Counted from the first letter of the stretch, positions 4,073-63,157 are shown. The stretch: DNA of 64,000 bases from an uncultured Acidimicrobiaceae bacterium (GCA_963780345.1 CAWABU010000002.1:595512-659511), one strand, 5' to 3'. Notes: generated by a model not told the origin, from the letters alone. Program-made: numbers and translations.

Positions 4073-4238
4073 GTGAGCACGGGCGGACGGGTCGTGTGCG
4101 GCGGCATCCCTCTTCCTGCTGTGCGATTCTGCGCCATCGCCGTTCAGATAGGGACGAATCTATCGGTTGAGATTCCTCCCTGCTGGTCGCTCTTCTGACC
4201 GTACCCCGACTCATGTGCGGCTGCCCTACCGTCGGTGC

Positions 4239-4796: not shown

Positions 4797-4809
4797 CCGG
4801 CCCTGGCCT

Positions 4810-6917: not shown

Positions 6918-6955
6918 TCACACCGCTCACGGTCGCCGGTGACCTGGCGAGCAAG

Positions 6956-28281: not shown

Positions 28282-28509
28282 CTGGCCCCTCCAAAAAGAT
28301 AGGCCTGCCCGGATTCCTCGGTGGCCGCCGCCCCTAGCTTAACAACGACCTCCTCTGGGCTCAATCAGCGCTGATGGCCGAACGCGAGGACGGGGAAGGA
28401 GGGCTGTCCTCAGGAGCCGGTCATGGCCTCCTCTCCGGTGGCGACCGCCCATCCGCGAAGCCTATACCGGCCGAGCGGCCGAACAACACGCGGCGCGCTC
28501 CTGACGGTG

Positions 28510-37821: not shown

Positions 37822-38937
37822 TTAGCCGACCGCGTCGCGGCCCAGCCGGGTGAGCAAGGCCTGCACCTGCAGCAGCTCCCCCGGGTTGTACTGCAGGTCC
37901 CGCCCGACGCGGTCGATGCGGTCGACGGCCTGCAGAGATGGGGCCAGACGACGGTCGTCCTCGGCCCGGCCCAACCGGTCCCGGTAGGCGCCCGCCAGGG
38001 CGGCCAGACCGGCGCGAAGCTCATCGGTGCGCTGGCGGCGCACTTCACGGCGGTGGCGGGTCTCCATTTCGGTCATCCCCGCGGTCAGCATGGCCTTGGC
38101 GGCCCTGGCCCCGGCCTGGCCCGAACGCCCGGCGCCCGCCGCGCCGGCGGCCCGGGCGTTGCGCTCCTCCAGGGCGGCCCGTTCGGCGTTATGGCGCGCT
38201 CGCAGGGGCTGGACGCTGGCCTCGAGCAGGGCCACAAGCTCGTCGGCGACGGTGGCGGCCGTCGCCCCGGTGCCATCGAGGCGGGCCGGCACCTCCAGCC
38301 AGGCCCGCCGCCGGAGCTCGAAATCCGGGTCGGTGGCCAGCAGGCGGGCCCGGTCCAGGCGACCGCCGGCGGCCTCCGCCAGCATCAGGGCCCGGGCCGG
38401 CTCGGTGCCCTCCTCCTCGAGGACCTGAGCGACCGCTTCGGCGCTCAGGGCCTGGAAGTCGATCCGCACGCAGCGGCTGGCGATGGTGACGAGCGCCGGC
38501 GGCACGTACTCCGCCAGGATGATGAAGACGGTAGTGGCCGGCGGCTCCTCGATGGTCTTGAGGAGGGCGGGGCCGGCGTCTTCGACCAGGTGAAAGTCGT
38601 GCAGGATGATCACTTTGCGGTCGCCCTCGACCGGGCTGGTGGCGGCCAGCCGGGACACGCGGCGGGCGGCGTCGATGCTGATGGCGGCACCCTCTCGTTC
38701 CACCTCGATGACGTCGGGGTGGACGGCTCCGAGCGCCCGCCGGCAGACGTCGCACGTGCCGTCGGGCGGACGGGTCTGACAGAGCAGAGCAGCCGCGAAG
38801 CCCCGGGCCGCGGCGGCTTTGCCTGATCCGGGCGGACCTACGAAGAGGTAGGCGTGCACGGGCCGGGCTACCGCCGCGTTGAGCGCGGCGATGGCCTGGT
38901 CCTGGCCGGCCACGGCTGCGAAGAACCCTCCTGTCAT
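37822..38937 (-). CDS. holB: DNA polymerase III subunit delta' (HolB)
   Basis: AAA+ P-loop HAYLFVGPPGSGK, a C-x-x-C zinc module (CQTRPPDGTCDVCRRAL), box II SIDAARRV, and DEAD-like ILHDFHLVED. Confidence 0.8.
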   Translation of the reverse strand: MTGGFFAAVAGQDQAIAALNAAVARPVHAYLFVGPPGSGKAAAARGFAAALLCQTRPPDGTCDVCRRALGAVHPDVIEVEREGAAISIDAARRVSRLAATSPVEGDRKVIILHDFHLVEDAGPALLKTIEEPPATTVFIILAEYVPPALVTIASRCVRIDFQALSAEAVAQVLEEEGTEPARALMLAEAAGGRLDRARLLATDPDFELRRRAWLEVPARLDGTGATAATVADELVALLEASVQPLRARHNAERAALEERNARAAGAAGAGRSGQAGARAAKAMLTAGMTEMETRHRREVRRQRTDELRAGLAALAGAYRDRLGRAEDDRRLAPSLQAVDRIDRVGRDLQYNPGELLQVQALLTRLGRDAVG

Positions 38938-39083
38938 TGAGGCCTCAGTCTGCCATCGGGATGGGTCGATGCCGCGGAGCGCCGCCCGGTGTATCTCCCC
39001 GCGGTTAGTCGACTCGTAGCCGGGGGACGGGCTCTGGCTCGGTCCGATGGCCGCATCCCCTCGCCGTGCACAGGAGGAGTGTC

Positions 39084-39293
39084 ATGAAGAAACTTACGCA
39101 GCAGTTCGTCGTCATGGCCAACGGTGACGTTCGCATTCCCGAAGGGACCTCGGAGGTTGGCCACGGTCACCGGGCTCCCGACGAGAAGATCAAGATTGTG
39201 GTGCCGGCGGCGAAGCACTCGGTCCTCGTTGAGGTGGAGGTCGAGCTCGAAGAGCCCGCGACCCCCGGGATCGCCACCAGGCTCCCGGCCTAG
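39084..39293 (+). CDS. hypothetical small protein
   Basis: ORF only (MKKLTQQFVVMANGDVRIPEG...). Confidence 0.25.
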   Translation: MKKLTQQFVVMANGDVRIPEGTSEVGHGHRAPDEKIKIVVPAAKHSVLVEVEVELEEPATPGIATRLPA

Positions 39294-39367
39294 ACGCCGA
39301 CCATCCACCGCCCCTTTTCGGAGCCGGTGCCTCCGCTCCTCTACCGGGTCCCGTCGGTGCAGCCTCT

Positions 39368-40630
39368 CTAGGGAAGGAAGGCCAGGAAGGCCCCGCTATT
39401 CACCTTGCTGCCACCGCCGCCACCGCCTCCACCACTCCCCGCAGCCACCGCGACCTCGAGGTCGATGTAGTAATTGTCGCCGTCGTTCTCGACCGTATTG
39501 GGGTAGACCCACGAGCCGCTCGAGTCCTGGGCGCAGGGGGTCAGCGGATTCGGTTGAAGGCCGCAGGGGACGCACGCAATGATGCCATTCCCAGCCCCAT
39601 GGGCGGCACCGATTCCCTGCGACGGGAATCCCCCTCCGTTGGTCAGCCAGTAGCCCTGATCGCCCGAATACCACACGTAACCCGGCGTGTACATGCCGGT
39701 GGCGACCCGATAGTTGTGGTTGGCCTTGAGGGTAAGTCCGGTCGACGAGTAGTCGCAATAGCACCACCCATCGCCCGGGGCCGCGGCTGAACCGTTGGGC
39801 AACACCCACTTCGGTGATTCGGTTACCGAACCAGGCACTACCTGCTGCGTCGCCGTGTCCCAGATCCCACAGATGCTCGGTAGTTTCCCGTTCCCGGTCT
39901 GCGACATGAACCACAGTTTGAGGACCTGACCCGGCTGGGACAAGGCGATCTGGGTCGAGACGGTGAAGGGGAGCGCCGCCTCGGGGGGGTAGAGAGGGTT
40001 TGGCTGGTTTGGCCAGCACCGATAGGTGATTCCGGCAGGGACCTGGTCGGTGACCTGCATGTCCATCCACAGGTTGAGTCCGTTGTAGGTCAATCCGGGA
40101 TAAACGGAGCTTGGATCGAGGGTGTTCTCCTGGTACGTCGAGTTGCCCGGCTGGAAGAAATCGACGTCGCTCTGGTTGCCGGAGGTGGCGTCGGCGAAGG
40201 CAAAGAGCGGTCCGTTGGCGATGCCCCGGGCGTAGATGCCACCCGCGCCGAACTGACCATTGGTGGCCGGAGCATACCGAGGAGACGCCGTCGCCGCCCG
40301 GTAGGCGATGTACTGCGTCAGCGGAATGGGTGCCGGCAGTGGAACGTAATTCCATTGTCCGGCGAGAAGGGTGCCAGACGTGACGACGGAATTCTGGACG
40401 AGCGTCCCGTACTCGCCCTTTTGGTCGGCATCGCCCGTGTCCTGCCACAGACAGAAGGTCTGCGGGGCGGTCGATTGTTGGGAACCACAGACCCACCACC
40501 AGTAACCCTCGAAGTACATGGTGTTCTGGGTCAACCAGAATCCGGTCGCCGACACGAACTCGACGCCTGCGCCAAAATCAACCGGAGTGGTCGGGCCGTC
40601 TGTGCCCGGGAACAGCCGGTAGGCCGTCAT
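39368..40630 (-). CDS. DUF4082 tandem-domain protein (no signal peptide)
   Basis: Two copies of the DUF4082-like pattern (..FEGYWWWVCGS..TFCLWQ..GQWNYVPLPAPIPL..YIA..). Paralogous to the C-terminal two-thirds of 40645-42453. Ends in a poly-Gly tract. Confidence 0.55.
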   Translation of the reverse strand: MTAYRLFPGTDGPTTPVDFGAGVEFVSATGFWLTQNTMYFEGYWWWVCGSQQSTAPQTFCLWQDTGDADQKGEYGTLVQNSVVTSGTLLAGQWNYVPLPAPIPLTQYIAYRAATASPRYAPATNGQFGAGGIYARGIANGPLFAFADATSGNQSDVDFFQPGNSTYQENTLDPSSVYPGLTYNGLNLWMDMQVTDQVPAGITYRCWPNQPNPLYPPEAALPFTVSTQIALSQPGQVLKLWFMSQTGNGKLPSICGIWDTATQQVVPGSVTESPKWVLPNGSAAAPGDGWCYCDYSSTGLTLKANHNYRVATGMYTPGYVWYSGDQGYWLTNGGGFPSQGIGAAHGAGNGIIACVPCGLQPNPLTPCAQDSSGSWVYPNTVENDGDNYYIDLEVAVAAGSGGGGGGGGSKVNSGAFLAFLP

Positions 40631-40644
40631 CGTCGACTCATCTA

Positions 40645-42453
40645 TCAGCTCGCGGTGACTTCGATGTCAACCCACAAGTTCTCGCCGTTGCCGGCCGGGT
40701 TGTAGGTCAACGGGTAAGCCCACGAGCCGAGGTTGTACGTCGCCTGGCCCGGGGCGGTGGCCCCGGAGGTCCCCGGCGCGGCCAGCGGACCGTTGACGAT
40801 ACCGCTGGCGGCCGGGCCTCCACCTCCCCAATAGCTGACGGCGGCGTGGTACCACTGCGCGCCGCCGGCAGAGAACACCGCTACCTTGTAATCACCGGCG
40901 GGCAGCGTCACGCCACTGTAGGCGCACGAGACCCATCCGGAGGCGGCCCCGCCCGACCATGAAGGGGCGGCGTTGTCAGTGCCTGCGACGACGGCCTGGG
41001 TGTTGACGTTCCATATCGCGCACCGCGTCGGGAGCACAGCGGCGCCCGTGGCCGAGTAAAACCAGATGCGGTCAAGGCTGCAGGGCTGCGACAGTTGGAA
41101 CTCGGTCGCGACCGTGTAACCAGCTGTGTCGGAGGACGCGGTACCCGGCAGGACGGGATAGTTGGGCCAGAGCCGGTACGACGCTCCCTTTGGAGGGGTT
41201 GTCCCAACCTGAACGTCCATCCAGAAGTTGGCCGACTGATAGTTGTTGTTGGGCATGTTGGCGGTGGGATCGGTGCCGGCCGTGCTGAAGAGTCCCTGCC
41301 CCATCTGGAAGAGGTCCGGTCTCGATCCCGACCCGTCCGAGTAGGCCACTATCGGACCACTGGAGATTCCGGCAGCATATGGTTGGCCCGAGCCGAACTC
41401 CCCACTGGAGATAGGAAAGCTGTCGCTGAAACCGGTTGACGCCACATATGTCGCATTGGGTGCCAGCGCGACGGGCGCCGGCAGGGAGATGTAGTTCCAT
41501 TGGCCGGGCGTCAGGGCGCTCGAGGTCACCGAGGCCGTCGCGACCACGGTGCCGGCTCGAGGTCCGGAGACCTGCCAGAGGGCGAATCCCTGAGCAGCCG
41601 TGCTCTGACCTGAGGGGCAGACCCACCACCAGTAACCCTCCAGCCAGGTGCCTCCGGTGACGGCCTCGAACATGATGCCGGCCAGAAACGGCCCGGCGTA
41701 GGACGCCGGTGCCGAGGGCCCGTTCGTCGCCGAGAAGAAGCGGAACGTGCCCGATGGCGGCGGGGCGCTGGCCGAGCTGAACCCCAGGGCGTACGCCACC
41801 AGGAGCCATTTGCCCATCGCCGCGTTGTAGATAAATGCCAACAGGTCGGTCTCGCCGGCGGCGGTGCTCAGGGCGGGCTGGGGCAGACCCGTTGAGAACA
41901 GGTAGCTGCCGCCCCAGGTCAGCGTGAAAGCGCCGCCGGCACCCTGCGTCACCTGGAACACGATCTTCTGGCCGTCAGCCGGGTTCGCCGGGTTGCCCAT
42001 GGCGCGATCGCCGGCGATCGCGACGCGAAAGTCGTTGCCCAGAGAGGCGTCGACGGCGATGATGGCGGCGTCGCTGAGGGTGACGACAGAGGGGGCGATG
42101 GCGCCGGTTTCGGTGACGGTCGCCGCCGACGCTGGTGACGTGAAGGTCTCCGTCAACACCGCTCCTCCAGCCACACCGGCGGCGGCGATGCCGACGGTCT
42201 TGAGCATGCGCCTCCGGCTCCAGGCCCGGTCCGGGGCGGCTGTCTCCGGGAGGGCCGGCTCCGGGAAGAGAGCCTCCGGGAGGGCAGGCTCGGGGAGGAG
42301 AGGCCCCGGGGCGACGGACTCCGGGGCGACGGGCTCCGGGGCGACGGACTCCGGGGCGACGGACTCCGGGGCGACAGACTCCGCGAGGACGGGATCGTCG
42401 GTCGAGGGGCTCGAACCTGATCCTCGGCCCCGAATCAGCAATCGCTTGTTCAC
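40645..42453 (-). CDS. TAT-secreted protein: unknown N-domain + 2x DUF4082
   Basis: Twin-arginine motif SRRRMLKTVGIAAAGVAG preceded by (ESVAP)n repeats. The N-domain is homologous to 42490-43071. It is followed by WLEGYWWWVCPSGQ..ALWQV.. and a second DUF4082 copy. Confidence 0.65.
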   Translation of the reverse strand: MNKRLLIRGRGSGSSPSTDDPVLAESVAPESVAPESVAPEPVAPESVAPGPLLPEPALPEALFPEPALPETAAPDRAWSRRRMLKTVGIAAAGVAGGAVLTETFTSPASAATVTETGAIAPSVVTLSDAAIIAVDASLGNDFRVAIAGDRAMGNPANPADGQKIVFQVTQGAGGAFTLTWGGSYLFSTGLPQPALSTAAGETDLLAFIYNAAMGKWLLVAYALGFSSASAPPPSGTFRFFSATNGPSAPASYAGPFLAGIMFEAVTGGTWLEGYWWWVCPSGQSTAAQGFALWQVSGPRAGTVVATASVTSSALTPGQWNYISLPAPVALAPNATYVASTGFSDSFPISSGEFGSGQPYAAGISSGPIVAYSDGSGSRPDLFQMGQGLFSTAGTDPTANMPNNNYQSANFWMDVQVGTTPPKGASYRLWPNYPVLPGTASSDTAGYTVATEFQLSQPCSLDRIWFYSATGAAVLPTRCAIWNVNTQAVVAGTDNAAPSWSGGAASGWVSCAYSGVTLPAGDYKVAVFSAGGAQWYHAAVSYWGGGGPAASGIVNGPLAAPGTSGATAPGQATYNLGSWAYPLTYNPAGNGENLWVDIEVTAS

Positions 42454-42489
42454 GGTGTGTTCCCTCTCAGATCGGGGGCTAGGAGGTGA

Positions 42490-43071
42490 TCAGCCGAACC
42501 CATTTACGAACGCCGCCAGCAGCCAGTTTCGATTGGCCGCGTTATAGAGAAAACCCAGCAGGTCGGTTTGGCCCGCCGCACTGCTGAGCGTCGGCTGGGG
42601 GAGGCCGGACGAGAACTCATAGTTGCTCCCCCAGGTCAAGGCGAACGGTCCCCCGGCTCCCTGGGTGATCTGGAAGATGATCTGCTGACCCGGTGCCGGA
42701 TTGGACGGGTTGCCCATGATGCGATCGCCGCCCAGAGTCAGGCGGAAGTCGTTGCCGAGCGACGCGTCCACGGCGACGGTCGGCGCGTCGACCAAATGGA
42801 CCACCGCAGGCGCGACCGCTCCCTGCTGGGTGGTCGTCTGGGCGGATGCCGCGGTGGGTGCCGCCTCGGCCAACACCGACCCGCCGGCCACGCCGACCGC
42901 GGCCAGCCCGACTGCGGCCGTGAGGATCCGCCTGCGGCTCAGGGCCTGATCTCCGTCCGTAGCCGCTTCCTCCGGATCTGCGCTCGCGGCGCTCGCCGCG
43001 ACCTTGCGCCGATCTGCCAGCCGTCGTCGATCTGCCAGCCGTCGTCGATCTGCCAGTGATCGTCCCGCCAT
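42490..43071 (-). CDS. TAT-secreted stand-alone N-domain paralogue
   Basis: TAT motif SRRRILTAAVGLAAVGVAGG. The segment TQQGAVAPAVVHLVDAPTVAVDASLGNDFRLTLGGDRIMGNPSNPAPGQQIIFQITQGAGG aligns residue-for-residue with the N-domain of 40645-42453. It is preceded by (RRRLAD)x3. Confidence 0.55.
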   Translation of the reverse strand: MAGRSLADRRRLADRRRLADRRKVAASAASADPEEAATDGDQALSRRRILTAAVGLAAVGVAGGSVLAEAAPTAASAQTTTQQGAVAPAVVHLVDAPTVAVDASLGNDFRLTLGGDRIMGNPSNPAPGQQIIFQITQGAGGPFALTWGSNYEFSSGLPQPTLSSAAGQTDLLGFLYNAANRNWLLAAFVNGFG

Positions 43072-43347
43072 GGGTCTCCTCTCTCCAGCCGATCAGCCCG
43101 ATGCCCCAAAGCGCACCGCGTTCGACGGCGCGCCGTCACTGCCTCTCATCGTGCCAGTCTCGGCCCGGCAGGCGGCGTTCGGCCTCATCGTCCTCGTGCT
43201 CCTTACCGCTCCCTAACCTTTGGCCCGACGTCACGTAGAGCGTGACGATCGGGCGCAGATACGGTGAGTTTCCGGTGGAGGCAGGCCAACCGTGGATTCA
43301 GGGGCCCAGTTCCACGGTTCGGGCCGGAAGCGAGGTGCCGCGGGGCC

Positions 43348-44631
43348 TCAGACCGCGCCTTCTCGCCGGTTGACCACCGATTCGGAGTCGGTGAGAGCAG
43401 GCCCCGCGGCGAGGGGTCGACGCCCCGCCGCGGTTCCGGCCGGATTTCCCATCGCGAACTCGTAGATGGACAGCAGCTGCCGGACGTTGTCATCCGGATC
43501 GAACCTCGACTCGTAGGCCCGGCGCGCTTGACGCCCATACCGCTCATAGCGGTCGGCTGACCTCTCCGCGTCATGCAGCAGCCCGGCCAGACTCCCGGCG
43601 TTGCCCGGCTCGAACAGCCGGCCTTCCTCCCGATCAACGAGCAACTCGGGGAACGCGCCGCTGGCCGGGGCGATGAGCGCTACGCCGGCCGCCATGGCTT
43701 CGACCACCACCAGACCGAATGGTTCCAACCACTCCGCCGGAGCGACGGCGACCCGGGCTGTGGCCATCAGGGCGCGACATTCCTCGGGGCTGAGCAGGCC
43801 GGCCACCACCACGTCGGAGCGGTCTCTGGCCCATGCCGACACGGCGTCGCCAAGCGGACCGGCACCGGCGATGACCAGACGCAGGGGGCGTGCTCCGGCC
43901 TCGGACGAGTAGCGGTCCCATGCCGCCATGAGGAGCGGAACCCCTTTGGCCTCATCCAGGCGTCCCGCGAATACGACGGTGTCTCCCGCCGTGGATCTCG
44001 GCGGAGGCGGGTCGACGAACGGCACCAGATTGGACTTGACGAAGACCCGGTCGTCAGGAAGGCCAAACGGGGCGAGGAGGTCACGCTGGGACCGGGACAG
44101 GCAGATGTAAGCGGAAACCATCGTCCGCCAGGCGTGACGGTGGGCATGTCCAGCCACTGCGACCGGCACCGTGGCCAGCTTCGATCCCCGGTAGCAACCG
44201 TGCCGGATGGCCGGCGCCGGCAGGTGCCCAACGCAGTCGGTACAGGTGGCGCCGTCCCGGAACAAGCTGCCCGACGCGCACAGCAGACGATAGTTATGGA
44301 GCGTCACGACCACGGGCACGCGCTCTCGGGCGCACGCGTACAGGACCGACGAGCTCAGCAGCGGGTACACATTGTGGACGTGGACCACATCCGGGCGATG
44401 ATCTCTGAGGGCGGCGATGAGGCCCCGGTAGGCGTCCTGACTCCACAGGACGCGCCCGGCCACCAGGGTTCGTCTCGCCAGCGGCCAGGTCTCGATGACG
44501 TCGCTCGAACGTTCGAACTGCTCGACCTCGTGTCCGTGAAGGCGCAGGCTCCCGGCCTCCCGGTCAACGACCCGATTTTCGCCGCTCGGTAGCGACGAGC
44601 GGTACCGGTTATGGACCTGCAGGACCTTCAC
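43348..44631 (-). CDS. GT4-family glycosyltransferase
   Basis: VKVLQVHNRY N-terminus, and the EX7E region ..EPFGLVVVEAMAAGVALIAPASGAFPELL.. . GTG start chosen at 44629-44631. The ORF extends to 44703. Confidence 0.8.
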   Translation of the reverse strand: MKVLQVHNRYRSSLPSGENRVVDREAGSLRLHGHEVEQFERSSDVIETWPLARRTLVAGRVLWSQDAYRGLIAALRDHRPDVVHVHNVYPLLSSSVLYACARERVPVVVTLHNYRLLCASGSLFRDGATCTDCVGHLPAPAIRHGCYRGSKLATVPVAVAGHAHRHAWRTMVSAYICLSRSQRDLLAPFGLPDDRVFVKSNLVPFVDPPPPRSTAGDTVVFAGRLDEAKGVPLLMAAWDRYSSEAGARPLRLVIAGAGPLGDAVSAWARDRSDVVVAGLLSPEECRALMATARVAVAPAEWLEPFGLVVVEAMAAGVALIAPASGAFPELLVDREEGRLFEPGNAGSLAGLLHDAERSADRYERYGRQARRAYESRFDPDDNVRQLLSIYEFAMGNPAGTAAGRRPLAAGPALTDSESVVNRREGAV

Positions 44632-45018
44632 GAAGAACTCCTCGATGGTCGGTCGGATGAGATCTGATGGGGGCCGACGCCGCCAGCTGCTCGCGACCGA
44701 CAACCCCTACCGGGAGTCTCGCCCTCGGAGCCCGGGCGGCTCCGCGCCACTCCACCACCGGGAAGGAGGGCCCAGCGCGGGCCGTGATACGGGCCCATGT
44801 CGTGACCGTCGAGAGCTGGACCGGCCCGCGCCAACCAGCCCAGGACCGTTCCTGTGGCAGCTGTTGACCGGAAGTTGTTGGTTCCTGGTGAGCCAGTGGA
44901 TGGAGCCCGATCAAGATCGTGCCCGTCGAAGCGTTGGATGAAGGGGTGTAGCCACGATGGGTAAACCGTGGGATGACGACGGGGCCGCAGGACTGTGGCC
45001 CGTCGGAGGTGAGGCATA

Positions 45019-45687
45019 GTGTCCGTTTCTCTCTCAGGAGCGACGGCTCCGATGACCGAGGACAGTCGGACGCTCCAACTTGCGACCGACTCGAACGAAG
45101 GGTCTCGTAGTTCTGACCAACCCGACGTAGCCAGGCTGGTCGCGGCGGCCGCCTCGGGTGATGGAACCGCATGGAATGCGCTGGTCGACAAGTTCTCGCC
45201 AACGGTCTGGGCGATTGCCCGGGGCCATCGGCTCTCGTCGGCCGACGCCGCGGACGTGTCACAGACGACGTGGCTGCGACTGGTCGAGAACCTGCATCGG
45301 ATCCAACAGCCGGAACGGGTAGGCGCCTGGTTGGCGGTGACGGCGCGCCGCGAGTCATTGCGGGTCCTGCGCGTTGGCGCCCGCCAGACGCCCACGGGCT
45401 ACGACTTCGACGTCCTGCCGGCTCCGGTGCCCGTCCGGCCGCCGGAGCACGCCATGGCCACCCAGGCGTGGGGAGCCGTCGTCGCCGAGCTGGTCCAGCA
45501 ACTTCCGACCCGGTCGCAGGTGTTGCTCCGGCTGCTGAGCGCGGACTCGCCGCTCAGCTATCGAGATATCAGCGAGGCCCTGGACATGCCCATCGGCAGC
45601 ATCGGTCCTACCCGGGCCCGAGCCCTCGAGCAACTCCGCCGGCTCGCGGTCAAGGCCGGGATCAACCCGGCTGACGTTTTCACCTGA
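45019..45687 (+). CDS. ECF-subfamily RNA polymerase sigma-70 factor
   Basis: Region 2 (..VWAIARGHRLSSADAADVSQTTWLRLVENL..) and region 4 HTH (..LSYRDISEALDMPIGSIGPTRARALEQLRR). Confidence 0.8.
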   Translation: MSVSLSGATAPMTEDSRTLQLATDSNEGSRSSDQPDVARLVAAAASGDGTAWNALVDKFSPTVWAIARGHRLSSADAADVSQTTWLRLVENLHRIQQPERVGAWLAVTARRESLRVLRVGARQTPTGYDFDVLPAPVPVRPPEHAMATQAWGAVVAELVQQLPTRSQVLLRLLSADSPLSYRDISEALDMPIGSIGPTRARALEQLRRLAVKAGINPADVFT

Positions 45688-45879: not shown

Positions 45880-46587
45880 TTGGCCTGCACCGAAGCACAA
45901 ATCCTCCTACCAAGGCTCATGGAGCCGACGGACGGTGGCGGCCGCCCCGGCTGGCCGATCTCCGTGCTGGTGCTCGACCCCCAGACTCTCTTCCGGACCG
46001 GCATGGCGCGGCTGTTGAGCGAAGACGACCGCCTGCTCGTGGTCGGGGTGTCCGATGGCGGAGATGACGTGCCCGAACGGTGCGCCTCTCAGTCCATCGA
46101 CGTCGTCCTGACCGATATCGAGATCCGCCAGTGGAGCGCGGTCGCCCTCACCCGGAGCATCGCCGCCGTCTCGCCGGACACCCGGGTGGTCATCCTGGCC
46201 TCCACCGTGGACTGGCGGGTCCTCCCGGCGATGGCCTCGGGGGCAGCCGGCTTTCTGGTCAAGGACACCGAGCCCGAGGCCTTGAGGTCCGCGGTACTTT
46301 CCGCCCACCTGGGTGAGCAGGTTCTCTGCCGGGAGGCGGCACGATGGCTGCTGCAGGACGAGCCCGACTATCGCCTGACCCGCCGCGAACACGATGTGCT
46401 CGGGCTGATGGCCGAGGGAGCCGGCAACAGTGAGATCGCCGACTCTCTCCGACTCGGCGACAAGACGGTCCGCAACTACGTGAGCCGTCTGTATCGCAAG
46501 CTGGCCATGCACGACCGGGCCGAGATCAGCTCACTGGGGCTTCACACCCAGGCCGTGGCCGGCCAGCACCGGGAAGCCAGGCCATGA
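45880..46587 (+). CDS. NarL/FixJ-family response regulator (REC + LuxR HTH)
   Basis: REC domain with the acceptor Asp in VVLTDIEI. LuxR HTH LTRREHDVLGLMAEGAGNSEIADSLRLGDKTVRNYVSRLYRKL. Confidence 0.8.
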   Translation: MACTEAQILLPRLMEPTDGGGRPGWPISVLVLDPQTLFRTGMARLLSEDDRLLVVGVSDGGDDVPERCASQSIDVVLTDIEIRQWSAVALTRSIAAVSPDTRVVILASTVDWRVLPAMASGAAGFLVKDTEPEALRSAVLSAHLGEQVLCREAARWLLQDEPDYRLTRREHDVLGLMAEGAGNSEIADSLRLGDKTVRNYVSRLYRKLAMHDRAEISSLGLHTQAVAGQHREARP

Positions 46588-47931
46588 GAGAACAGCCCCT
46601 GGACCTGCGGTCCTCGCTCGGCGCCCTGCGCCGCCGGTGGACCGTCATCGTCGCCCTGGCGGTGGTAGGCCTCCTGGGCGGGGTCGTCTTCGCCAGCCTC
46701 CATGTTCCGCAGCCCCGCGCCGCCGCCCAACTCGTGCTGCCCACCACGACGGCGTCGGGCGCCGACGTCACCGCGACCGACACCAAGACCCAGGTCGCAA
46801 TTGTCACCAGCGGCGTCGTGCTGGCGCCGGCGGCAAAATCGGCGAAGCCCCCGATCGCCCTCGACCAGCTGGAGAAAGTCGTGTCCGCCGGCGCAGTGGG
46901 CAACAACATCCTCCGCATCGAGGCCCGGGCTCCGACGGCCGGACGAGCAGTCCAGCTGGTCGCCGCCGTCACGAGCCAGTACCAGACCTACGTCAAAGCC
47001 CACCCCGCCGTGGTGCACGGGACTCCAGTAGTCATCCAGAGCCCAGCCGCGGTGACCCCGCCTTCCACCACCTCGCTCCTGTTGAAATACGGCTTGCTCG
47101 GCCTGGTCGCCGGACTGCTCGTGGGCGTCGCTGTGGTCCTGATCCGGGCCCGCCGGGACCACCGGCTTGCGCCAGCGGGACCAGATCGCGGGTGCCATCG
47201 GCGTGCCGGTCCTGGCCTCGCTGGAAGCCGAGCACTACAAGAGCGTGTCCGACTGGATTCGGGTGCTGGAGCGCTTCGACCCTTCCGCCATGAAGGCCTG
47301 GACCCTGCGCCGCGTCTTGCGGAACCTGATCCCCACCGATCTCGAAGGCCAGGCCACGATTCACGTGGTCTCCTTCGTCGGCGACCGGGCGGCCCTCGCC
47401 ACCGGTCCGGAGCTGGCCCTCTTCGCCGCCGGATCCGGCATTCCGACCCGACTGGCGCCCGACGAGAACGTGGCCCTCGAGCCTCTGATCGCGGCGTGCG
47501 CCGCCCTCCGGACTTCCATCCATACGGATCAGTTGCTCTCGTTTGGCACCGAGACCGAAACGTGGCACGGACCGATGGGGCGGCCGATCCGATGGGATGA
47601 CGATCCGGCCCTGGTCGAGGCCCATCTGGTCGTCTCCGTGGTCGCCGTGGAGCCCTCGCGGCCCGAGCTGACTTCGATCGTCGGACCCACCATCCTGGCC
47701 GTCTCCTCCGGGTTCGCGGTGGTCGACGACCTGGCCCGGGTGGCGCTCGCCGCCACCAAGGCCGGACTCGGGATTGACGGGATTGTGGTGGTCAACCCTG
47801 ACCCGGGCGACACGACCACCGGCTTGCTGCCCGATCGCATGGCCGGCGGCTGGCGGGCCCACGACAGCGGTGCGCAACAGGGCCCGGGATCGACGGCCCA
47901 TCTGACAGGAGGAACGACGTGGCGGGCATAG
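46584..47931 (+). CDS. Wzz/CapA-like polysaccharide co-polymerase fused to a P-loop-less BY-kinase-like domain, interrupted by an apparent frameshift near 47160
   Basis: Frame 0 (46584-47190): TM1, periplasmic domain, TM2 and RARRDHRL. The continuation (R)QRDQIAGAIGVPVLASLEAEH.. and a ~250-aa CapB-like domain lacking GKT are in frame 1 (ORF 47167-47931). Confidence 0.5.
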
Positions 47932-48773
47932 ACCACTGGGCGGCCGAAGCGTTCACCGCCGAGGAGTTCGAGGATCCGTTCGATCCCGGTCCCACCGTGA
48001 GCATCCGGTCGTTGAAATCAGCGGTCAAGCGACGGAAGCGGCTGTGGATTGCGACGGCCTTCGCGGGACTGATTCTGGGCGCCAGCCTCCACGTCCTCCT
48101 CCCGAGCAAGGTGGCGGCGGTTTCCAGGCTGTATCTGATCCAACCAGCGGGGGCCGACCCGACCATCGCCATCACCAATGACCTCAACCTGCTCGGGACT
48201 CGCACGGTGGCGGTCGCCGCGTCGGGCGTACTGCAGTCTGGCGCCACTCAGCCCCTGACTTCCTACAAGGGGTCGGCCCAGGGCAGCGCCCTGCTGGCGA
48301 TCAAGGCCACCGGCCCGACCGGAACCGAGGCCGCGGCCAGGGCCAACGCCGTGGCCAAGGCCTTCCTCCAGGTTCGCGCTCAGGTCCAGAAGCAGGCGAC
48401 GGACGCCGAGATCACAACGCTCAGCGCCGAAATCCAGTCCCGCCAGGCCGACATGGCGTCATCCAGGAACGCGGCCCAGCAAAGCCAGGACCGGTACCAG
48501 ATCGGGATATTCCAGGACCAGATAGCCCAGGACAAAGCCGGTCAATCTGCGGTGGTTCGCAACAGCGTCGTGCTCGACCCGGCGTATGTCGTGGTGGTGT
48601 CGGCCAAGAAGACCGCCATCAAGGACGGGCTGGCCGGGCTGATCGCGGGGCTCGCCCTCGGCATCACCATCGTGATCCTGGGTGAGTTGCTGTCCGACCG
48701 GGTCCGCGGCCGTTCTGACGTGGCGTCCGCGCTCGGCGCGCCGGTCGAGTTGAGCGTGGGCCGGCTCAAGTGA
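47919..48773 (+). CDS. Wzz/CapA-like chain-length-determinant membrane protein
   Basis: N-terminal TM (LWIATAFAGLILGASLHVLL), a coiled periplasmic domain, C-terminal TM (GLAGLIAGLALGITIVILG) and the RGRSDVASALGAPVEL linker motif. GTGA overlap with the next gene. Confidence 0.6.
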   Translation: MAGIDHWAAEAFTAEEFEDPFDPGPTVSIRSLKSAVKRRKRLWIATAFAGLILGASLHVLLPSKVAAVSRLYLIQPAGADPTIAITNDLNLLGTRTVAVAASGVLQSGATQPLTSYKGSAQGSALLAIKATGPTGTEAAARANAVAKAFLQVRAQVQKQATDAEITTLSAEIQSRQADMASSRNAAQQSQDRYQIGIFQDQIAQDKAGQSAVVRNSVVLDPAYVVVVSAKKTAIKDGLAGLIAGLALGITIVILGELLSDRVRGRSDVASALGAPVELSVGRLK

Positions 48774-49423
48774 CCCGGTGGTGGAAGGCTGCCCGGCTCC
48801 GGCGGCGATTGAACCATCCCACGCCCGCGTTGCAGTTGATCGTGCGGCGGCTGCGGGTTCAGCTCCAGAACGCGCCCGGTGAAGCGCTGGCCCTGGTGGA
48901 GATCGGGTCGGCCGAACCGGCCGCTGTCGCCCTGGCGTCGCTGGCCCACCTCCTGGCGTCGGACGGCCAACGGGTGGTCCTGGCCGACACCGCCGAGGGC
49001 CGCCCCTTGTCCACCCTCGTCCGCGGATCCTGCGAGGCGGGATCGCTCTGCATGGTGTCGGTGAAGGGGCAACCGGTCGGTCTCTTCGTCGCTCCGGCCG
49101 ACCCAACCCGGATGGCGGACCTGGACGCCGGCGAGGACGCCGATGTGGTCCTGGTCCTGGCCAGCATCGATCCCGCCCTGGGCGCGGACCACGTGGCGGC
49201 CTGGGCCGGAGATGCCGTCGTGATGGTACGGGCCGGCGAAGCGACGTCCTCGCGGATCGACGGGGTGGCCAAGCAGCTTCGCGAGGCGCGCGTCCTCATT
49301 CGCTCAGCGGTGCTCATCGGGACCGACTCCGACGACTACAGCTCCGGCCTTCCTGCCCCTCGCCCCCACGGGCCCGACCCTGCCGACCTTCTCCTCCAGT
49401 CCCTCAATGCCTCCGGGCACTGA
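48770..49423 (+). CDS. CapB/BY-kinase-like domain protein lacking Walker A (predicted pseudo-ATPase)
   Basis: Block-by-block similarity to the BY-kinase at 1-996 (ALVEIGSAEP..RVVLADTAEGRP ~ ILVSSPYSNEGKT..RIGVVSCDLRKP; DADVVLVLASIDP ~ FEIVLIDSPP), but GKT is replaced by AEP. About 55% identical to 60208-60872. Confidence 0.55.
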   Translation: MTRWWKAARLRRRLNHPTPALQLIVRRLRVQLQNAPGEALALVEIGSAEPAAVALASLAHLLASDGQRVVLADTAEGRPLSTLVRGSCEAGSLCMVSVKGQPVGLFVAPADPTRMADLDAGEDADVVLVLASIDPALGADHVAAWAGDAVVMVRAGEATSSRIDGVAKQLREARVLIRSAVLIGTDSDDYSSGLPAPRPHGPDPADLLLQSLNASGH

Positions 49424-49429
49424 CGCCGA

Positions 49430-51079
49430 TCAGGGCCGGTAGACACTCTCCTGGTCCTGGGGGGCGAAGCGATCCCCTGAGCCGTTGGTGTTGGTCGTCC
49501 CGGCCGTCCACTGCGACCACGTCGAGAAGTCGCCCTGCGAAAAGGCGACAAACCGCCATGGCCCGTTGTACGTGTTGTGCTCGAAGTGATTGTTCTGCTG
49601 GTTGGAGATGGCGTTGGGGACAACCCAGGCCCGGTATGGCGCCAGGGTGCCGAAGATGCCAAAAAGGGCGTTGTAGCCACACCCGGTGCTGCTGCCCGGA
49701 TGGGCGATGGCCCGGGTGCAAGCGGCACCGAGCGCCGCCGGGTTGAAGTTGAACGTATTGCCGCTGACCGTCACGTTCTGGGTCTTCCACCGACAATTGT
49801 CGAAGTAGTCGGGGTTGGCACCCGGCGTATCGGCCGGCAGGTGCTGGGCGCAGGTGGCCCGCGTGTAGCGGCCTGGTTCGATCAGGGTGCAGACCGCGTC
49901 CACGCTGACCCCGCAAACCCGGCCGGGGCTGTCGTACAGCGTTACTCCACCCCAGTTGTTCGTCAGGACGTTCCCGGCCACGAGAAACTGCCCGCTGTAC
50001 TCGCCAGGTACTCTCCGGTCGGAGCCGGACTCCGAGATGTAGATGGCCGAGCCCGGGAAGTCTGGTGTGTCGTTGTGGGTGCCAGCACCGATGTCATTGC
50101 CGATCAGAGTGTTGTCGGTGATGCGGGCGTTATAGGAGATCTCGTACATGATCCCTTCGCCGTAGTTGTTGGCGATGTAGTTGTGGGAGATGTCGAATCC
50201 GGCGTTGTTGGTGTCCGCCCACAGCCCCGGATCTCCGTTGTCATGGACATAGTTCCCGGTGACGACGCCGCCGATCGTCTCCCAGAACTTGCCGCCGCCC
50301 GCGCAACCACAGTCAGGATTGGCTCCGCCCGGGTGGTCGTACGCACCCGCGGTGTCGTTGTAGGAGATCTCGTTGTTGGTCAGCGTGACGTGCCGGGACT
50401 CAAAGCTGATGAAGCCGTACTCGCCGTTGTGGGTCAGGCAGTTATTCGTGACCGTCGAGTTCGTGCCGACCAGGACGCCTGCCCCATTGACGTTATCCTT
50501 GATCAGGTTGTATTCGATGCGCCAGTTGCTGTAGCCGCCTTCCCCGACGACCGCCGCCCCCTCGCCGGCCATGAAGTCCTCGATCGTCAGATACTTGATC
50601 GTCACGTTGGTGTCCGCAGCCTCGGCGTAGGTGCTGTTGGATTCCACGGCGTAGTTGTTCTGGCCTTGACCGCTCAGGATGGCCCCTGGCGCACCGACGA
50701 AGGTGTCGCCCGGCGCGGCCTGAATCTGGGCGTACGGACCGGAGCCGAGGGTGTGAACGCCCGGCGCGAACCAGTAGACGGTGTTCGGCCGGATGCGATA
50801 GTTGATGACAATTTCGGAGTTGCTGTTGTCGCCGGCGGGAATCGTCACCGCGCCGGTCGGGGGGGTTCGGTAAGGGCTGGTGAACCCGGTTTCGCACCAG
50901 GTCACAGGCGGGGACAGGGGGGCCGCGTCAGCCCCGGTGCCGGGAGAGGGAGAGGGGGGTCGGGCGGAGACGGTCGTCGGGGGTGAGCCGCGGGTCGAGT
51001 CCGCGAACGGCGCGCACGCGGTCAGACCCAGGCCCCCGCCGAAGGCCAGCGCCGCGATCAGAAGAAAGGCGCGCTTCAC
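49430..51079 (-). CDS. right-handed parallel beta-helix repeat lipoprotein (pectate-lyase-fold; putative polysaccharide lyase/hydrolase)
   Basis: Lipobox LTAC after a signal peptide (GTG start at 51077-51079). Repeated NNxIxxN beta-helix rungs (TNNCLTHNGEYGF, TNNEISYNDTAG, SHNYIANNYGEG, TDNTLIGNDIGAG). Confidence 0.7.
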   Translation of the reverse strand: MKRAFLLIAALAFGGGLGLTACAPFADSTRGSPPTTVSARPPSPSPGTGADAAPLSPPVTWCETGFTSPYRTPPTGAVTIPAGDNSNSEIVINYRIRPNTVYWFAPGVHTLGSGPYAQIQAAPGDTFVGAPGAILSGQGQNNYAVESNSTYAEAADTNVTIKYLTIEDFMAGEGAAVVGEGGYSNWRIEYNLIKDNVNGAGVLVGTNSTVTNNCLTHNGEYGFISFESRHVTLTNNEISYNDTAGAYDHPGGANPDCGCAGGGKFWETIGGVVTGNYVHDNGDPGLWADTNNAGFDISHNYIANNYGEGIMYEISYNARITDNTLIGNDIGAGTHNDTPDFPGSAIYISESGSDRRVPGEYSGQFLVAGNVLTNNWGGVTLYDSPGRVCGVSVDAVCTLIEPGRYTRATCAQHLPADTPGANPDYFDNCRWKTQNVTVSGNTFNFNPAALGAACTRAIAHPGSSTGCGYNALFGIFGTLAPYRAWVVPNAISNQQNNHFEHNTYNGPWRFVAFSQGDFSTWSQWTAGTTNTNGSGDRFAPQDQESVYRP

Positions 51080-51237
51080 GCCTAGTGGGCCGGCCAGAAA
51101 CTCGACGCCGGAAACTCGGCAGTCAGAACGCCTGATTGCATGGCGACACCAGGCCGCGAGTTTCCGGCGTCGAGTTCGCAGGCAGCCCACTAGCCCGCGG
51201 CCGGACCTTGCCCGGTGCGGACCTCCCGACGCCGACC

Positions 51238-52140
51238 CTACCGGCCGCGTCTCCACGCGGCACCAATACCGTCGCCGGGCCACCAATGATTGCGAGGCTG
51301 CTCACTGAAGAAGAGGTACTGACGCCCGGTCCGCTCGGCCCAATCGGAGAGGGCCGATGAATCGTGGGCATTGTCAGAGAGAATGATGGCGTCGTCGCGG
51401 AGACGACTTTCGACCGCGGCCAGTTCCCTGGTTTCGTAGTCGTAGGTGTGAAGGCTGTCGTGAAGGAACATGTCCACGCCCTCAGCGCCCGCGAGCACCT
51501 CGGTCGAGTCGCCCGTGCGGCGGTCTATGACCTCAGCCCACGGCCCTCCGATGAGGTACCCGGCCTCCGGATCGATATCGATCGTCGTCAGCCGACCGTG
51601 CCCATTTCGGAGCAGGGCGGCAGCGATGGCACACGAACCAAGGCCCAGGTGGGTGCCGGTCTCGATGATGCAATCGGGCTGCTTGGCCCGGACGAGGGCA
51701 TACCATCCGAGCCGCCGCGCCCACCGCGGCTCCTTCGGGGATATGCCGCGGCGCGGACCGGACGACAATCGATCCGTCAGATGGTCGAAGAGGCCGCGGT
51801 CGTCCTCGAGTTCCTGCATCCACGCCCGCACCTGTTTGACGTCCGCTCCGGATACAGCCGCGACAAACCAGGCCAGCTGGTCACGGTTGAGCGAATCCAG
51901 CTCGTACGTGAAGTTGGTCGTCTCGCGGTCACGGACCAGCCAATCGACCGACCGCCCGATGACGTGGGCATCGTAGCGCGCCACCAGCAAGGTGCGCAGG
52001 GGGAACGCCGCCCCTCTGGCTGCGGATGAGTTTGCGAGCCGGTGTCGGACTCTCGACTGCATGGCGCTGGCACCCTTTGCGACTGTGATCATGGGGTTCG
52101 TGCTCACCTCGTGTGGAAGGTCTTCATTGATGGCGGACAT
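51238..52140 (-). CDS. class I SAM-dependent methyltransferase (TylF/MycF macrocin-O-methyltransferase-like family)
   Basis: ..CIIETGTHLGLGSCAIAAAL.. SAM-binding motif and ..MFLHDSLHTYDYE.. typical of TylF-like enzymes. The start may be internal (52062). Confidence 0.6.
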   Translation of the reverse strand: MSAINEDLPHEVSTNPMITVAKGASAMQSRVRHRLANSSAARGAAFPLRTLLVARYDAHVIGRSVDWLVRDRETTNFTYELDSLNRDQLAWFVAAVSGADVKQVRAWMQELEDDRGLFDHLTDRLSSGPRRGISPKEPRWARRLGWYALVRAKQPDCIIETGTHLGLGSCAIAAALLRNGHGRLTTIDIDPEAGYLIGGPWAEVIDRRTGDSTEVLAGAEGVDMFLHDSLHTYDYETRELAAVESRLRDDAIILSDNAHDSSALSDWAERTGRQYLFFSEQPRNHWWPGDGIGAAWRRGR

Positions 52141-52172
52141 AGGCTACGGGCCGGTGACGGCGTTCTGGCTCC

Positions 52173-53420
52173 CTAATGGGCGGGGTGCGGACTGAGCCAG
52201 AAGCCATCTCGAGCTTCCGACCTGCGGCCGGCGCGGGGGACAAGGAGGGACGCCGCCAGCGTGAGATCGAGCAAGTAGATGGTGGGTTCACCCATCCCCG
52301 TATCGGTGTACGAAGCGAACAGGCAATAGGCGATCAGGAAGAGGGCAAGAGCGCTGGTGGGCCCCCGGGGTCGCAGCAGAGCCGTGATCAAGAGAACGAG
52401 GAAGATGGCCGCTTCGAGAACACAGCCCACGATTCCCTGGTTCTGGTAGGTGGCGACCCAACTGTTGTCAATCGGGAGTCCGTTGTCGACCGTTTGGTTG
52501 ATCACAGAGTCATTGGTCATCCCGGAGCCGAGAATCTTGTTGGTCTCCGGACGAGACTCGGTGAAAACCAGATGCCAGGCGTTGGTACGGCCGGACAGAT
52601 TAGAGAGAGCCTGGGCGTTCTGGCCCCGGACGAGCCACGCCGTGATCGCCGGGGAGAGGGGCACCAGGACGGTCAGGATCACGACCAGAGAAATCGCAAA
52701 GGTCCGGCGAACCCGTTGCTTGGTGACGAACAGGCTCAGGGCTGCGACGAGGAGGCCGACCACGAGGCCGCCCAGGGCAGTGCGCGTGTGCGTCGCGAGC
52801 AGAGCGATGAAGCCCCCGCCAATCAGCAGCATGGCCGGCTTGCGGCGAATCATGCCGCACAGCCACAGCACCACGGTCAAGCCAGTGAGCTCGGCCGTAT
52901 AATGCGCCGCTTGCGGGGCGGTCATCGGCCAAATTACCCCATTGAGCCGAGGGCTGCCGTAGTTCAGAGAAAAGGCCCGGCTCGGCGAGATGAGAATCCC
53001 CAGGAACAACGATCCGAGGATGGCGGTCAGCACCAGGAGCTGACCGCGTAGCAGGACCAGTCCTCGATCCCGGAACCAGGGGGTGAGCAGCCAGATGACG
53101 GCGAGGAAGACCAGAAAGCGAACACTTCTGTAGGTCGTCCCGAGCCCGACGAACCTGACGCTCATCATAAAGGCGAGGAGACCCATCAGGGTGTAGAGGC
53201 CGAGAAACAGATTCGGACGGATGATGCCCTTTCGATTGACCGTCAACGCCACTATCAGCGCGGCCACCAGGGCACCCTGGGTCAGCAGCTGCCCAAACTT
53301 GTGCGGGATAGGAAGCACCAGCGTCGGCTTCGCAAAAGCGAGCGTGTTCAGGAACAGGAGGGCCCAGACCGCGGTGACGTGCCGCAGGCGGCGCCTGTCG
53401 ACGGGGGCCTCCAACTGCAT
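52173..53420 (-). CDS. O-antigen ligase/Wzy-like polymerase family membrane protein
   Basis: About 10-12 TM helices with one large extracytoplasmic loop, in a polysaccharide locus. Start chosen at MQLEAPVDRR. The ORF extends to 53573. Confidence 0.6.
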   Translation of the reverse strand: MQLEAPVDRRRLRHVTAVWALLFLNTLAFAKPTLVLPIPHKFGQLLTQGALVAALIVALTVNRKGIIRPNLFLGLYTLMGLLAFMMSVRFVGLGTTYRSVRFLVFLAVIWLLTPWFRDRGLVLLRGQLLVLTAILGSLFLGILISPSRAFSLNYGSPRLNGVIWPMTAPQAAHYTAELTGLTVVLWLCGMIRRKPAMLLIGGGFIALLATHTRTALGGLVVGLLVAALSLFVTKQRVRRTFAISLVVILTVLVPLSPAITAWLVRGQNAQALSNLSGRTNAWHLVFTESRPETNKILGSGMTNDSVINQTVDNGLPIDNSWVATYQNQGIVGCVLEAAIFLVLLITALLRPRGPTSALALFLIAYCLFASYTDTGMGEPTIYLLDLTLAASLLVPRAGRRSEARDGFWLSPHPAH

Positions 53421-53520
53421 GGGGGCAGGTGCGCTCAGCAAGGTCACGGACCGACTCCTTCCGCCCTGCTGAGAGACGCTGGACGCCGGTTTGATACACG
53501 GCCTTCGCGGACCTCGACAC

Positions 53521-58597: not shown

Positions 58598-58829
58598 AGC
58601 AAACGCCGTCGGGCAGTGGTGAGATCCATTACTCAGGAGGACCGGGCGCGGGACGTGATACGGCGACCGTTGATGTATTTAATTAAGTCCCCCCGGCTCA
58701 TGCCACCGTGCTTTGCGTTTGTCGCGCCCATCGGGGCTTCGCCAGCCTCCGGACGCGGCGCGCTCGCTGGGGACCTGACCTCAGGCCACCGGCGGGCCTG
58801 ACCGGGTCGGCGGGTGTGGTGACGCTCCC

Positions 58830-60872: not shown

Positions 60873-60933
60873 CGATCACTGCTCCGCAACGAGCCACCGG
60901 AGCGTAGTTTCGTTGGCCGACGGACGCGGTGGG

Positions 60934-63138: not shown

Positions 63139-63157
63139 TTCGAAGTGTCCTTCCGGA

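Follow-up and report, generated by a model that had tools for sequence, protein, structure and literature searches.

A C-terminal peptide marks the proteins without a twin-arginine signal in a conserved DUF4082 gene cassette of soil actinobacteria

Introduction

Why would three neighboring genes encode, in turn, a small domain behind an export signal, the same domain fused to a pair of DUF4082 domains, and a DUF4082 pair with no signal peptide at all? The question is raised by a stretch of 64,000 nucleotides (nt) from an uncultured Acidimicrobiaceae bacterium (GCA_963780345.1, CAWABU010000002.1:595512-659511), which we call the window and in which positions 39,368 to 43,071 hold the three genes, here named A, B, and C. 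A sequence-only reading of the window took them for the outcome of recent domain shuffling. Our comparisons point instead to one copy of an old cassette, in which the signal-less protein carries a short conserved C-terminal peptide (the tail) that the signal-bearing proteins lack. This arrangement suggests that C could leave the cell as a passenger of a signal-bearing partner, a proposal that we consider about as probable as its negation.

Results and Discussion

Three genes built from two kinds of domain

An open reading frame (ORF) call returned three consecutive minus-strand ORFs, as the sequence-only reading had placed them, and its modular description was right: A carries the shared domain (N-domain) only, B the N-domain and two DUF4082 domains, and C two DUF4082 domains only. 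The features of the three genes are as follows; the signals are those of twin-arginine translocation (Tat), and RR denotes the twin-arginine motif.

42490-43071, minus: gene A, 193 amino acids (aa), ORF call; RR-signal protein carrying the N-domain alone, proposed Tat escort
43006-43056, minus: 18-nt in-frame repeat of A (LADRRR, about 2.6 copies) in the n-region of the signal peptide, lineage-specific (Tandem Repeats Finder)
42841-42939, minus: putative Tat signal of A (aa 45-77), with SRRRILT motif, hydrophobic region, and ASA/Q cleavage site
42493-42816, minus: N-domain of A (aa 86-193), predicted beta-sandwich of the phage tail-fibre/tailspike-adaptor type
40645-42453, minus: gene B, 602 aa, ORF and hidden Markov model (HMM) matches; fused protein without C-terminal tail
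42232-42381, minus: proline-rich in-frame repeats of B, (ESVAP)x5 and then a PEPALPE-type stretch, in the n-region upstream of the RR motif; lineage-specific expansion
42118-42219, minus: Tat signal of B, with SRRRMLK, hydrophobic region, and ASA/A (TIGR01409)
41776-42099, minus: N-domain of B (aa 119-226), 67% identical to that of A
40648-41745, minus: two DUF4082 domains of B (aa 237-417 and 418-602), predicted beta-sandwiches
40631-40644, minus: 14-nt spacer from the B stop to the C ATG; C follows B, not A, in this lineage
39368-40630, minus: gene C, 420 aa, member of the divergent orthologue group Cc; proposed Tat passenger
39404-39448, minus: variable Gly/Ser linker of C, VAAGSGGGGGGGGSK, between the last strand and the tail
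39371-39403, minus: C-terminal peptide of C, VNSGAFLAFLP, proposed docking/export element; family motif [VA]-N-[SP]-G-A-F-L-x-F-F-P-COOH

Protein A consists of a long n-region, S45-RRRILT, a hydrophobic stretch, A75-S-A/Q, and a domain of about 108 aa. The shared domain had been put at about 190 aa; the rest of that length in A is n-region and signal peptide. R46 and R47 are invariant in an alignment of 49 homologues, the RR motif occurs in 118 of 120 A-type orthologues (60-88% identical), and about 500 relatives of A were found at 57-93% identity. Tat signals had been claimed for both A and B. For B the claim is supported by TIGR01409 (18.1 bits against a cut-off of 16.7, aa 78-110, with SRRRMLK at aa 79-85), while for A, which has no listed TIGR01409 match, the assignment is based on the motif rather than on an HMM. 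Scans of Pfam and NCBIfam returned nothing for A.

Gene B starts with GTG, preceded by a Shine-Dalgarno-like site, GAGAGGGA. Two stretches of the protein match PF13313 (43.7 bits against a cut-off of 28.4), which places it in the Pfam family, and its N-domain was modeled with a predicted local distance difference test (pLDDT) score of about 85-90. More than 570 relatives of B are 60-89% identical to it. The RR motif is present in 123 of 148 B-type proteins; the rest of these, like the two A-type exceptions, have mis-called starts. The apparent length of 520 aa of the closest B orthologues stems from gene callers using the ATG inside SRRRMLK and not from a shorter protein; in the B orthologues P0001-P0003, the start called there deletes the twin-arginine motif. 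Public annotations will therefore under-report the Tat signals of this family. The exact 602-aa (B) and 420-aa (C) products are found on the database record. Sequence searches of the PDB with B and with a profile of the A family gave nothing meaningful; the best match, to uracil-DNA glycosylases (E 0.27), was a chance match of 'GNDFRVT'.

Protein C has no signal peptide, as the sequence-only reading had noted, and none can be restored. Its frame extends from stop to stop by just 12 codons upstream of the ATG, overlapping B, so that no upstream start can give a signal peptide; 24 of 25 orthologues begin at the same Met. The view of C as two DUF4082 domains stands by homology and not by a Pfam match of its own. 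C had no Pfam match at E ≤ 0.1, PF13313 included, and no NCBIfam match, and a precomputed PF13313 match is absent from all C orthologues at 66-89% identity, the subgroup being too divergent for the Pfam model. Its membership follows from its relationship to the DUF4082 pair of B (39% identity to B aa 237-599 over 399 columns, E 1e-69). The C orthologue group comprises about 30 clusters at 66-89% identity with full-length coverage, and everything else is at most 42% identical. C-type proteins also share a cluster of invariant cysteines at aa 353-366 (C353-x-x-C356...C366) that B-type proteins lack. It may be a metal site, which would give C a reason to fold before export.

The cassette in related genomes

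Our classification of family ORFs covered 14 loci from genomes or contigs and 77 from metagenomes (about 90 in all, cited by L numbers). We gathered 345 proteins for architecture and tail counts and compared DUF4082 and N-domain sequences with identity matrices and a neighbor-joining tree. The carriers are soil metagenome-assembled genomes labeled Acidimicrobiaceae, Streptosporangiaceae, Trebonia, or 'Actinomycetes'. The triad is one copy of an old three-gene cassette that is widely conserved in soil actinobacteria.

The commonest gene order is fused, N-only, signal-less (NDD-N-DD, about 27 loci); N-DD-NDD occurs in three loci, and the order seen here, N-NDD-DD, occurs in the window and in its closest relative, L001, alone. 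Where an N-only gene lies directly before a signal-less one, the two are nearly always joined: 43 of 49 such pairs share one base between stop and ATG (TGATG or TAATG; GGnTTCnnnTGATG), and a further four are spaced by -4 to +1 nt. Such an overlap is what one usually finds for subunits produced together. The junction is broken in the window, where A ends ...GGGTTCGGCTGATCACC and B begins 36 nt later.

The N-domain is strongly conserved in A and B alike, with median identities of 74% (A-A), 70% (A-B), and 72% (B-B). The DUF4082 pairs split into a B clade, a 'Cb' clade, and a long-branched 'Cc' clade, to which the C of the window belongs; members of Cc are 75% identical to each other and 41-42% identical to other DUF4082 pairs. 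Four entries of the B clade had seemed signal-less only because a contig end truncates these B genes.

Several variations on the three architectures were seen. A fourth architecture, with an RR signal and a DUF4082 pair and with neither N-domain nor tail, is found in L014:7550-9082, L015:3671-5311, and L016:6309-7826. In L012:9729-10802 and L013:9658-10653, an RR signal and N-domain precede a C-terminal domain that by eye looks like IPT/TIG, with no DUF4082, and the N-domain thus seems to act as a handle for several types of head. A signal-less DUF4082 protein (L088:1779-3752; P0219) contains, within its second DUF4082 domain, an insertion of about 230 aa that by eye looks LamG-like; P0219 has a precomputed PF13385 match. 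A fourth cassette gene lies between the fused and N-only genes in 18 loci (e.g. L063:5108-5698, L002:8138-8521, L036:5080-5706). Its product is a lipoprotein of about 190 aa with the lipobox LVGCS and a conserved C-terminal domain of about 110 aa that ends ...AAAKAAGFCxGWKxF; it has no Pfam match, and tblastn found no homologue in the window.

A tail where the signal is missing

The last residues of all 26 C-type orthologues are (V/A)NSGAFL(A/V/T)FFP, preceded by a linker that varies in length and composition; in the C of the window, this end reads SKVNSGAFLAFLP. Among the 345 proteins, 76 are signal-less with two DUF4082 domains, and 71 of these have the canonical tail, three have a variant of it, and two are truncated. 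The RR motif occurs in none of the 76, and the tail in none of the 148 fused proteins. Nor was the tail present in the RR-signal proteins of L014, L015, and L016, which have the DUF4082 pair and no N-domain; the tail therefore tracks the missing signal and not the missing N-domain. Among 7,372 ORFs from all sources, 58 end in the tail motif: 57 members of the family and one relic.

On the DUF4082 tree, independent changes of state occur, and the rule holds through them. The relic belongs to one of these, a separate fusion in L076 (4353-6122) that joins an A-like RR signal and N-domain, through a linker rich in Ser, Pro, and Thr, to a DUF4082 pair of the Cb type. This pair is 82-84% identical to those of signal-less proteins and at most 62% identical to those of ordinary B proteins. 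The fusion stops just after ...VEVTPS, without a tail, and 70 nt downstream a relic ORF (6195-6368) encodes ...GENRRRDVVV...VTNSRGFLAFFP*. In L060, the DUF4082 subtypes are swapped and the tail remains on the split gene, and in L068 and L085 a B-like DUF4082 pair is split and tailed. Across these several independent events of fusion, fission, or domain swap, the tail has gone with the architecture. L068 and L085 also hold the sole strongly divergent A-type N-domain, paired with the sole strongly divergent tail (SSSGILLLNFP). Coming from a single lineage, this co-divergence is suggestive only.

At 11 residues, the tail lacks the LPXTG motif, membrane-spanning stretch, and basic end by which sortase-, exosortase-, and rhombosortase-type signals are recognized. 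That the signal-less copy may depend on its secreted partners, which the sequence-only reading had offered as one possibility, is supported by these comparisons.

Predicted folds and phage relatives

The N-domain is predicted to have the fold of phage tail-fibre and tailspike adaptors, with similarity to both solved and predicted phage tail proteins. Its profile matches the tail-fibre or tail-assembly families phrog_19976, 22179, 9017, 4757, and 5596 (E 5.5e-6 to 2.4e-3). Fifteen IMG/VR contigs encode the N-domain at 38-57% identity, in proteins that match the same PHROGs. There, it forms the very C-terminus of fibre-like proteins or, in proteins of about 745 aa, lies just upstream of a region of about 600 aa that we read by eye as a beta-helix depolymerase. 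The family comprises 10,253 representative clusters at E ≤ 1e-3, in which the domain is mostly C-terminal and sometimes forms arrays of five to nine copies. One viral protein of 1,956 aa (L093:460-6327) carries a homologue 55% identical to that of A at its extreme C-terminus and, by eye, several beta-helix regions; with a guanine-cytosine (GC) content of 47%, its contig shows that the module also occurs outside phages of high-GC hosts. Some N-domains have the precomputed label PF26209.

For DUF4082, a beta-sandwich had been expected, and the models bear this out: the domain resembles PHR and galactose-binding-like carbohydrate-binding folds and is best described as a predicted lectin-like beta-sandwich. 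From these fold relatives and from the polysaccharide genes nearby, we infer that it binds carbohydrate. The accessory repeats of the glycoproteases CpaA and StcE are only 10-15% identical, and the triad has no protease domain. In the literature, DUF4082 is mentioned by just two papers, each time in passing, and we found nothing published on this cassette.

At the level of folds, the N-domain recalls branched tailspike and tail-fibre assemblies (CBA120 TSP1-4 with XD adaptor domains; T4 gp9, gp10, and gp34). Unlike in phage tailspikes, the module here belongs to cellular proteins encoded in polysaccharide loci, where it follows a Tat signal.

Genomic context

Upstream of the triad, the window encodes a GT4 glycosyltransferase, a sigma-70-family factor, and a LuxR-type response regulator, and downstream holB and then an MMPL transporter. 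The name holB rests on a DNA_pol3_delta2 match in the syntenic gene of L001, with which the order GT4 - A - B - C - holB - MMPL is shared. Farther upstream, positions 46545-63207 hold a Wzy-type polysaccharide cluster with the following members.

49433-51301: beta-helix protein
51241-52143: methyltransferase
52176-53621: Wzy_C protein
53524-55719: heparinase II/III-like protein
56954-58678: Bac_transf priming transferase
60937-63207: GFO/IDH oxidoreductase

Several ORFs at 46.5-49.3 kb of the window have no Pfam match. At other loci, the recurrent neighbors are PIG-L, a sugar C-methyltransferase, an epimerase, a pyruvyl transferase, GT2, Wzy_C, and a Wzz-like protein, which makes the cassette a regular companion of Wzy-type surface-polysaccharide loci. 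No phage genes flank it, and positions 38800-45100, when scanned for promoters and terminators, yielded no sites. Farther downstream in the window are a protein with a Tectonin domain, another lectin-like fold (26773-28338), and a 1,140-aa protein with an OmpA-like domain (19229-22648).

A candidate case of Tat hitchhiking

The Tat pathway exports folded proteins and folded complexes. In the mechanism that we propose, B would be the covalent version of an assembly that A and C form from separate chains. B joins a Tat signal, an N-domain of the phage tail-fibre type, and two predicted lectin-like DUF4082 beta-sandwiches; A would supply the Tat signal and N-domain, and C a different DUF4082 pair without a signal. 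C would fold in the cytoplasm and bind a signal-bearing partner, A or possibly B, by means of its flexible linker and the conserved ...NSGAFLxF(F/L)P peptide. It would then cross the membrane folded, as a passenger ('hitchhiker') of the Tat translocase. Outside the cell, the exported proteins would probably bind polysaccharide made by the neighboring Wzy-type locus.

This proposal starts from direct observations (the architectures with their conservation and age, translational coupling, the tail/signal rule, the folds, and the genomic context), from which we infer that A binds C, that the tail docks, that C is exported by way of Tat, and that the proteins bind glycans. We put the chance that A and C are a split form of B, with C co-exported by Tat hitchhiking and the tail as its docking element, at about even. 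A tail that docks specifically on the N-domain is a more doubtful proposition. The same degree of doubt attaches to the broader and tentative idea that NSGAFLxFFP-COOH is a portable 'piggy-back' export tag, one through which a folded protein with no signal of its own would dock on the N-domain of a Tat substrate.

Signal-less Tat passengers are well documented (PMC6719666, PMC4273604, PMC10924467). In the FAD-glucose dehydrogenase of Burkholderia, the signal-less alpha subunit depends for its folding and secretion on a small gamma subunit with a Tat signal (PMC6719666), and PaoABC is another such case (PMC4273604). As in these pairs, and in DmsAB and the small and large subunits of NiFe-hydrogenase, the signal in the cassette is confined to one side: A and B have the RR motif, and C cannot have it. 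The genes of known pairs are adjacent and coexpressed; for the cassette, the TGATG overlap marks 43 of 49 pairs in relatives, and in the window B separates A from C, which starts 14 nt after the B stop. The likeness to glucose dehydrogenase goes further, with a small signal-bearing subunit that would escort a larger signal-less one. The known hitchhikers differ in being redox enzymes that mature with cofactors, whereas the partners here are beta-sandwich modules with no recognized cofactor. Two other features set the cassette apart from them, namely the fused paralogue in the same operon and the C-terminal passenger peptide that marks the split state. It also resembles 'Rosetta stone' pairs, in which a fused gene in one place and adjacent coupled genes in another predict physical interaction. 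Unlike the usual pairs, it has both states in one operon and several switches between them, each with gain or loss of the tail.

A number of observations weigh against this proposal. A and C are neither adjacent nor coupled in the window and L001, with B between them. The signal-less protein of L077 has a long, different C-terminal extension in place of the tail, and about ten loci have a tailed signal-less gene with no N-only gene alongside. The parity of cysteine numbers, considered as a proxy for export, carried no localization signal (9, 10, or 11 cysteines in C-type proteins, 2 to 9 in B-type). The sequences of the family are all metagenome-derived. Actinobacteria route many cofactor-less proteins through Tat, so that use of the pathway alone is weak evidence. 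Finally, nearly all of the known Tat hitchhikers are enzymes with cofactors, and docking through a short C-terminal peptide is not known for any of them.

Among the alternatives, the one that survives best, though we think it unlikely, keeps C in the cytoplasm, where it would, for example, act on lipid-linked or nucleotide-sugar intermediates of the polysaccharide pathway next to it or help A or B to assemble, the tail being an intracellular contact. A protein with no signal peptide and no means of regaining one would fit such a role, as would its separation from A in the window and the tailed genes that have no RR-N gene beside them, and the CxxC...C cluster (C353, C356, C366), which B lacks, would be in keeping with a metal site that forms before any export. 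The difficulty is that all other architectures with a DUF4082 pair, both the B type and the RR-signal pair without N-domain, bear export signals, and that the relatives by fold are phage receptor-binding proteins and modules, lectin-like or carbohydrate-binding, that work outside the cell. A cytoplasmic C would also leave the 1-nt overlap (43/49 pairs) and the strict choice between tail and signal unexplained.

The orphan tailed genes bear on a second, distinctly improbable alternative as well, that some other machinery reads the tail as a signal for secretion or sorting in its own right, independently of A, B, and Tat. The tail replaces the signal peptide one for one, even by comparison with the RR-signal pairs that have no N-domain, and it sits at the extreme C-terminus behind a flexible linker, as C-terminal signals do. 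It fits no known sortase- or exosortase-type signal, though, and no transporter gene recurs nearby, the recurrent neighbors being polysaccharide enzymes and the lipoprotein. The motif was on no other protein family among the 7,372 ORFs, and the TGATG coupling to the RR-N gene would have no explanation.

That the genes are the remnant of a prophage or tailocin receptor-binding module and not a cellular secretion cassette is very improbable despite the fold of the N-domain, given flanks of holB, the MMPL transporter, GT4, the sigma factor, and the Wzy-type cluster with no phage genes, synteny retained in a relative, Tat signals, which are not a feature of virion proteins, and the presence of the cassette in about 90 chromosomal loci beside polysaccharide genes.

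If Tat hitchhiking by C is true, the phenomenon extends from cofactor enzymes to secreted binding proteins, and a minimal docking peptide has been identified that could perhaps be reused for the co-export of folded passengers. Should the peptide be a piggy-back tag, one Tat signal would export interchangeable lectin-like heads, much as branched tailspikes share an adaptor. It would be the first peptide-mediated, cofactor-independent hitchhiking system on the Tat pathway, with the tagless fused paralogue in the same operon as a built-in control. If the hitchhiking reading fails, a clean, conserved set of split and fused genes remains, of modest interest. The tail/signal rule is sharply testable and concerns a widespread uncharacterized family, even though it does not in itself solve the mechanism. 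The cassette offers a first working context for two uncharacterized modules, DUF4082 and the N-domain, both tied to Wzy-type loci whose carriers are abundant, uncultured soil actinobacteria. A domain common to actinophage receptor-binding proteins and host surface proteins also bears on the exchange of glycan recognition between phage and host.

Age of the triad and its younger parts

In the sequence-only reading, the triad was the result of a recent local shuffle by duplication and deletion, and C might be a decaying signal-less duplicate. Compared at the DNA level, the N-domains of A and B are 70.7% identical (60-67% in protein) with a synonymous divergence (dS) of 1.12, and the DUF4082 pairs of C and B are 51.6% identical with a dS of 1.94; inside each protein, one DUF4082 repeat is about 28% identical to the other. 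The best orthologues of A, B, and C elsewhere are 88-89% identical to them, above the paralogue in the window. With dS saturated and closer orthologues elsewhere, the triad is not recent, and its genes fall into ancient, diverged orthologue groups, an outcome that the sequence-only reading had itself named as telling against it; the other outcome that it had named, a start upstream of C that brings back a signal peptide, did not occur.

Nor is C decaying. The gene is intact, its ratio of nonsynonymous to synonymous divergence (dN/dS) is 0.08-0.12 against the L001 orthologue and 0.10-0.17 against six other C orthologues, and it has its own conserved tail. A ratio of about 0.1 indicates purifying selection and hence that C is maintained; the values against L001 are 0.16 for A and 0.14 for B. 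A recent local shuffle with C in decay is therefore refuted, suggestive as the modular architecture and the young, microsatellite-like repeats in A and B may be, with window paralogues at dS 1.1-1.9, separate orthologue groups across many genomes, and a C gene under constraint with a tail of its own.

In a few other loci, the N-domains of A and B are unusually similar, a hint of occasional gene conversion. In L059/L060 (NDD 3296-5137; DD 6388-7674), they are 88% identical and the DUF4082 subtypes appear to be swapped between fused and split genes, an indication that the cassette has undergone internal recombination or gene conversion.

Two homologues are broken in their assemblies, the C homologue of L001 (7579-8832) into two ORFs and the B homologue of L011 (5390-7111) into at least five. 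These are probably frameshifts of long-read assembly, possibly pseudogenes.

What is young in this triad is the in-frame repeats only, both of which the sequence-only reading had noticed and Tandem Repeats Finder recovered. The ESVAP repeat of B has a 15-nt unit in 5.2 copies (42306-42383, 95% matches) and is accompanied by degenerate arrays of 15, 30, and 45 nt. The RRRLAD repeat of A has an 18-nt unit in 2.6 copies (43010-43056, 100% matches). Neither has a counterpart in L001, which is 89% identical: the RRRLAD repeat is not present in L001, P0226, or P0227, and the B homologue of L001 has a single PGLPET copy where the B of the window has about 50 residues of proline-rich repeats.

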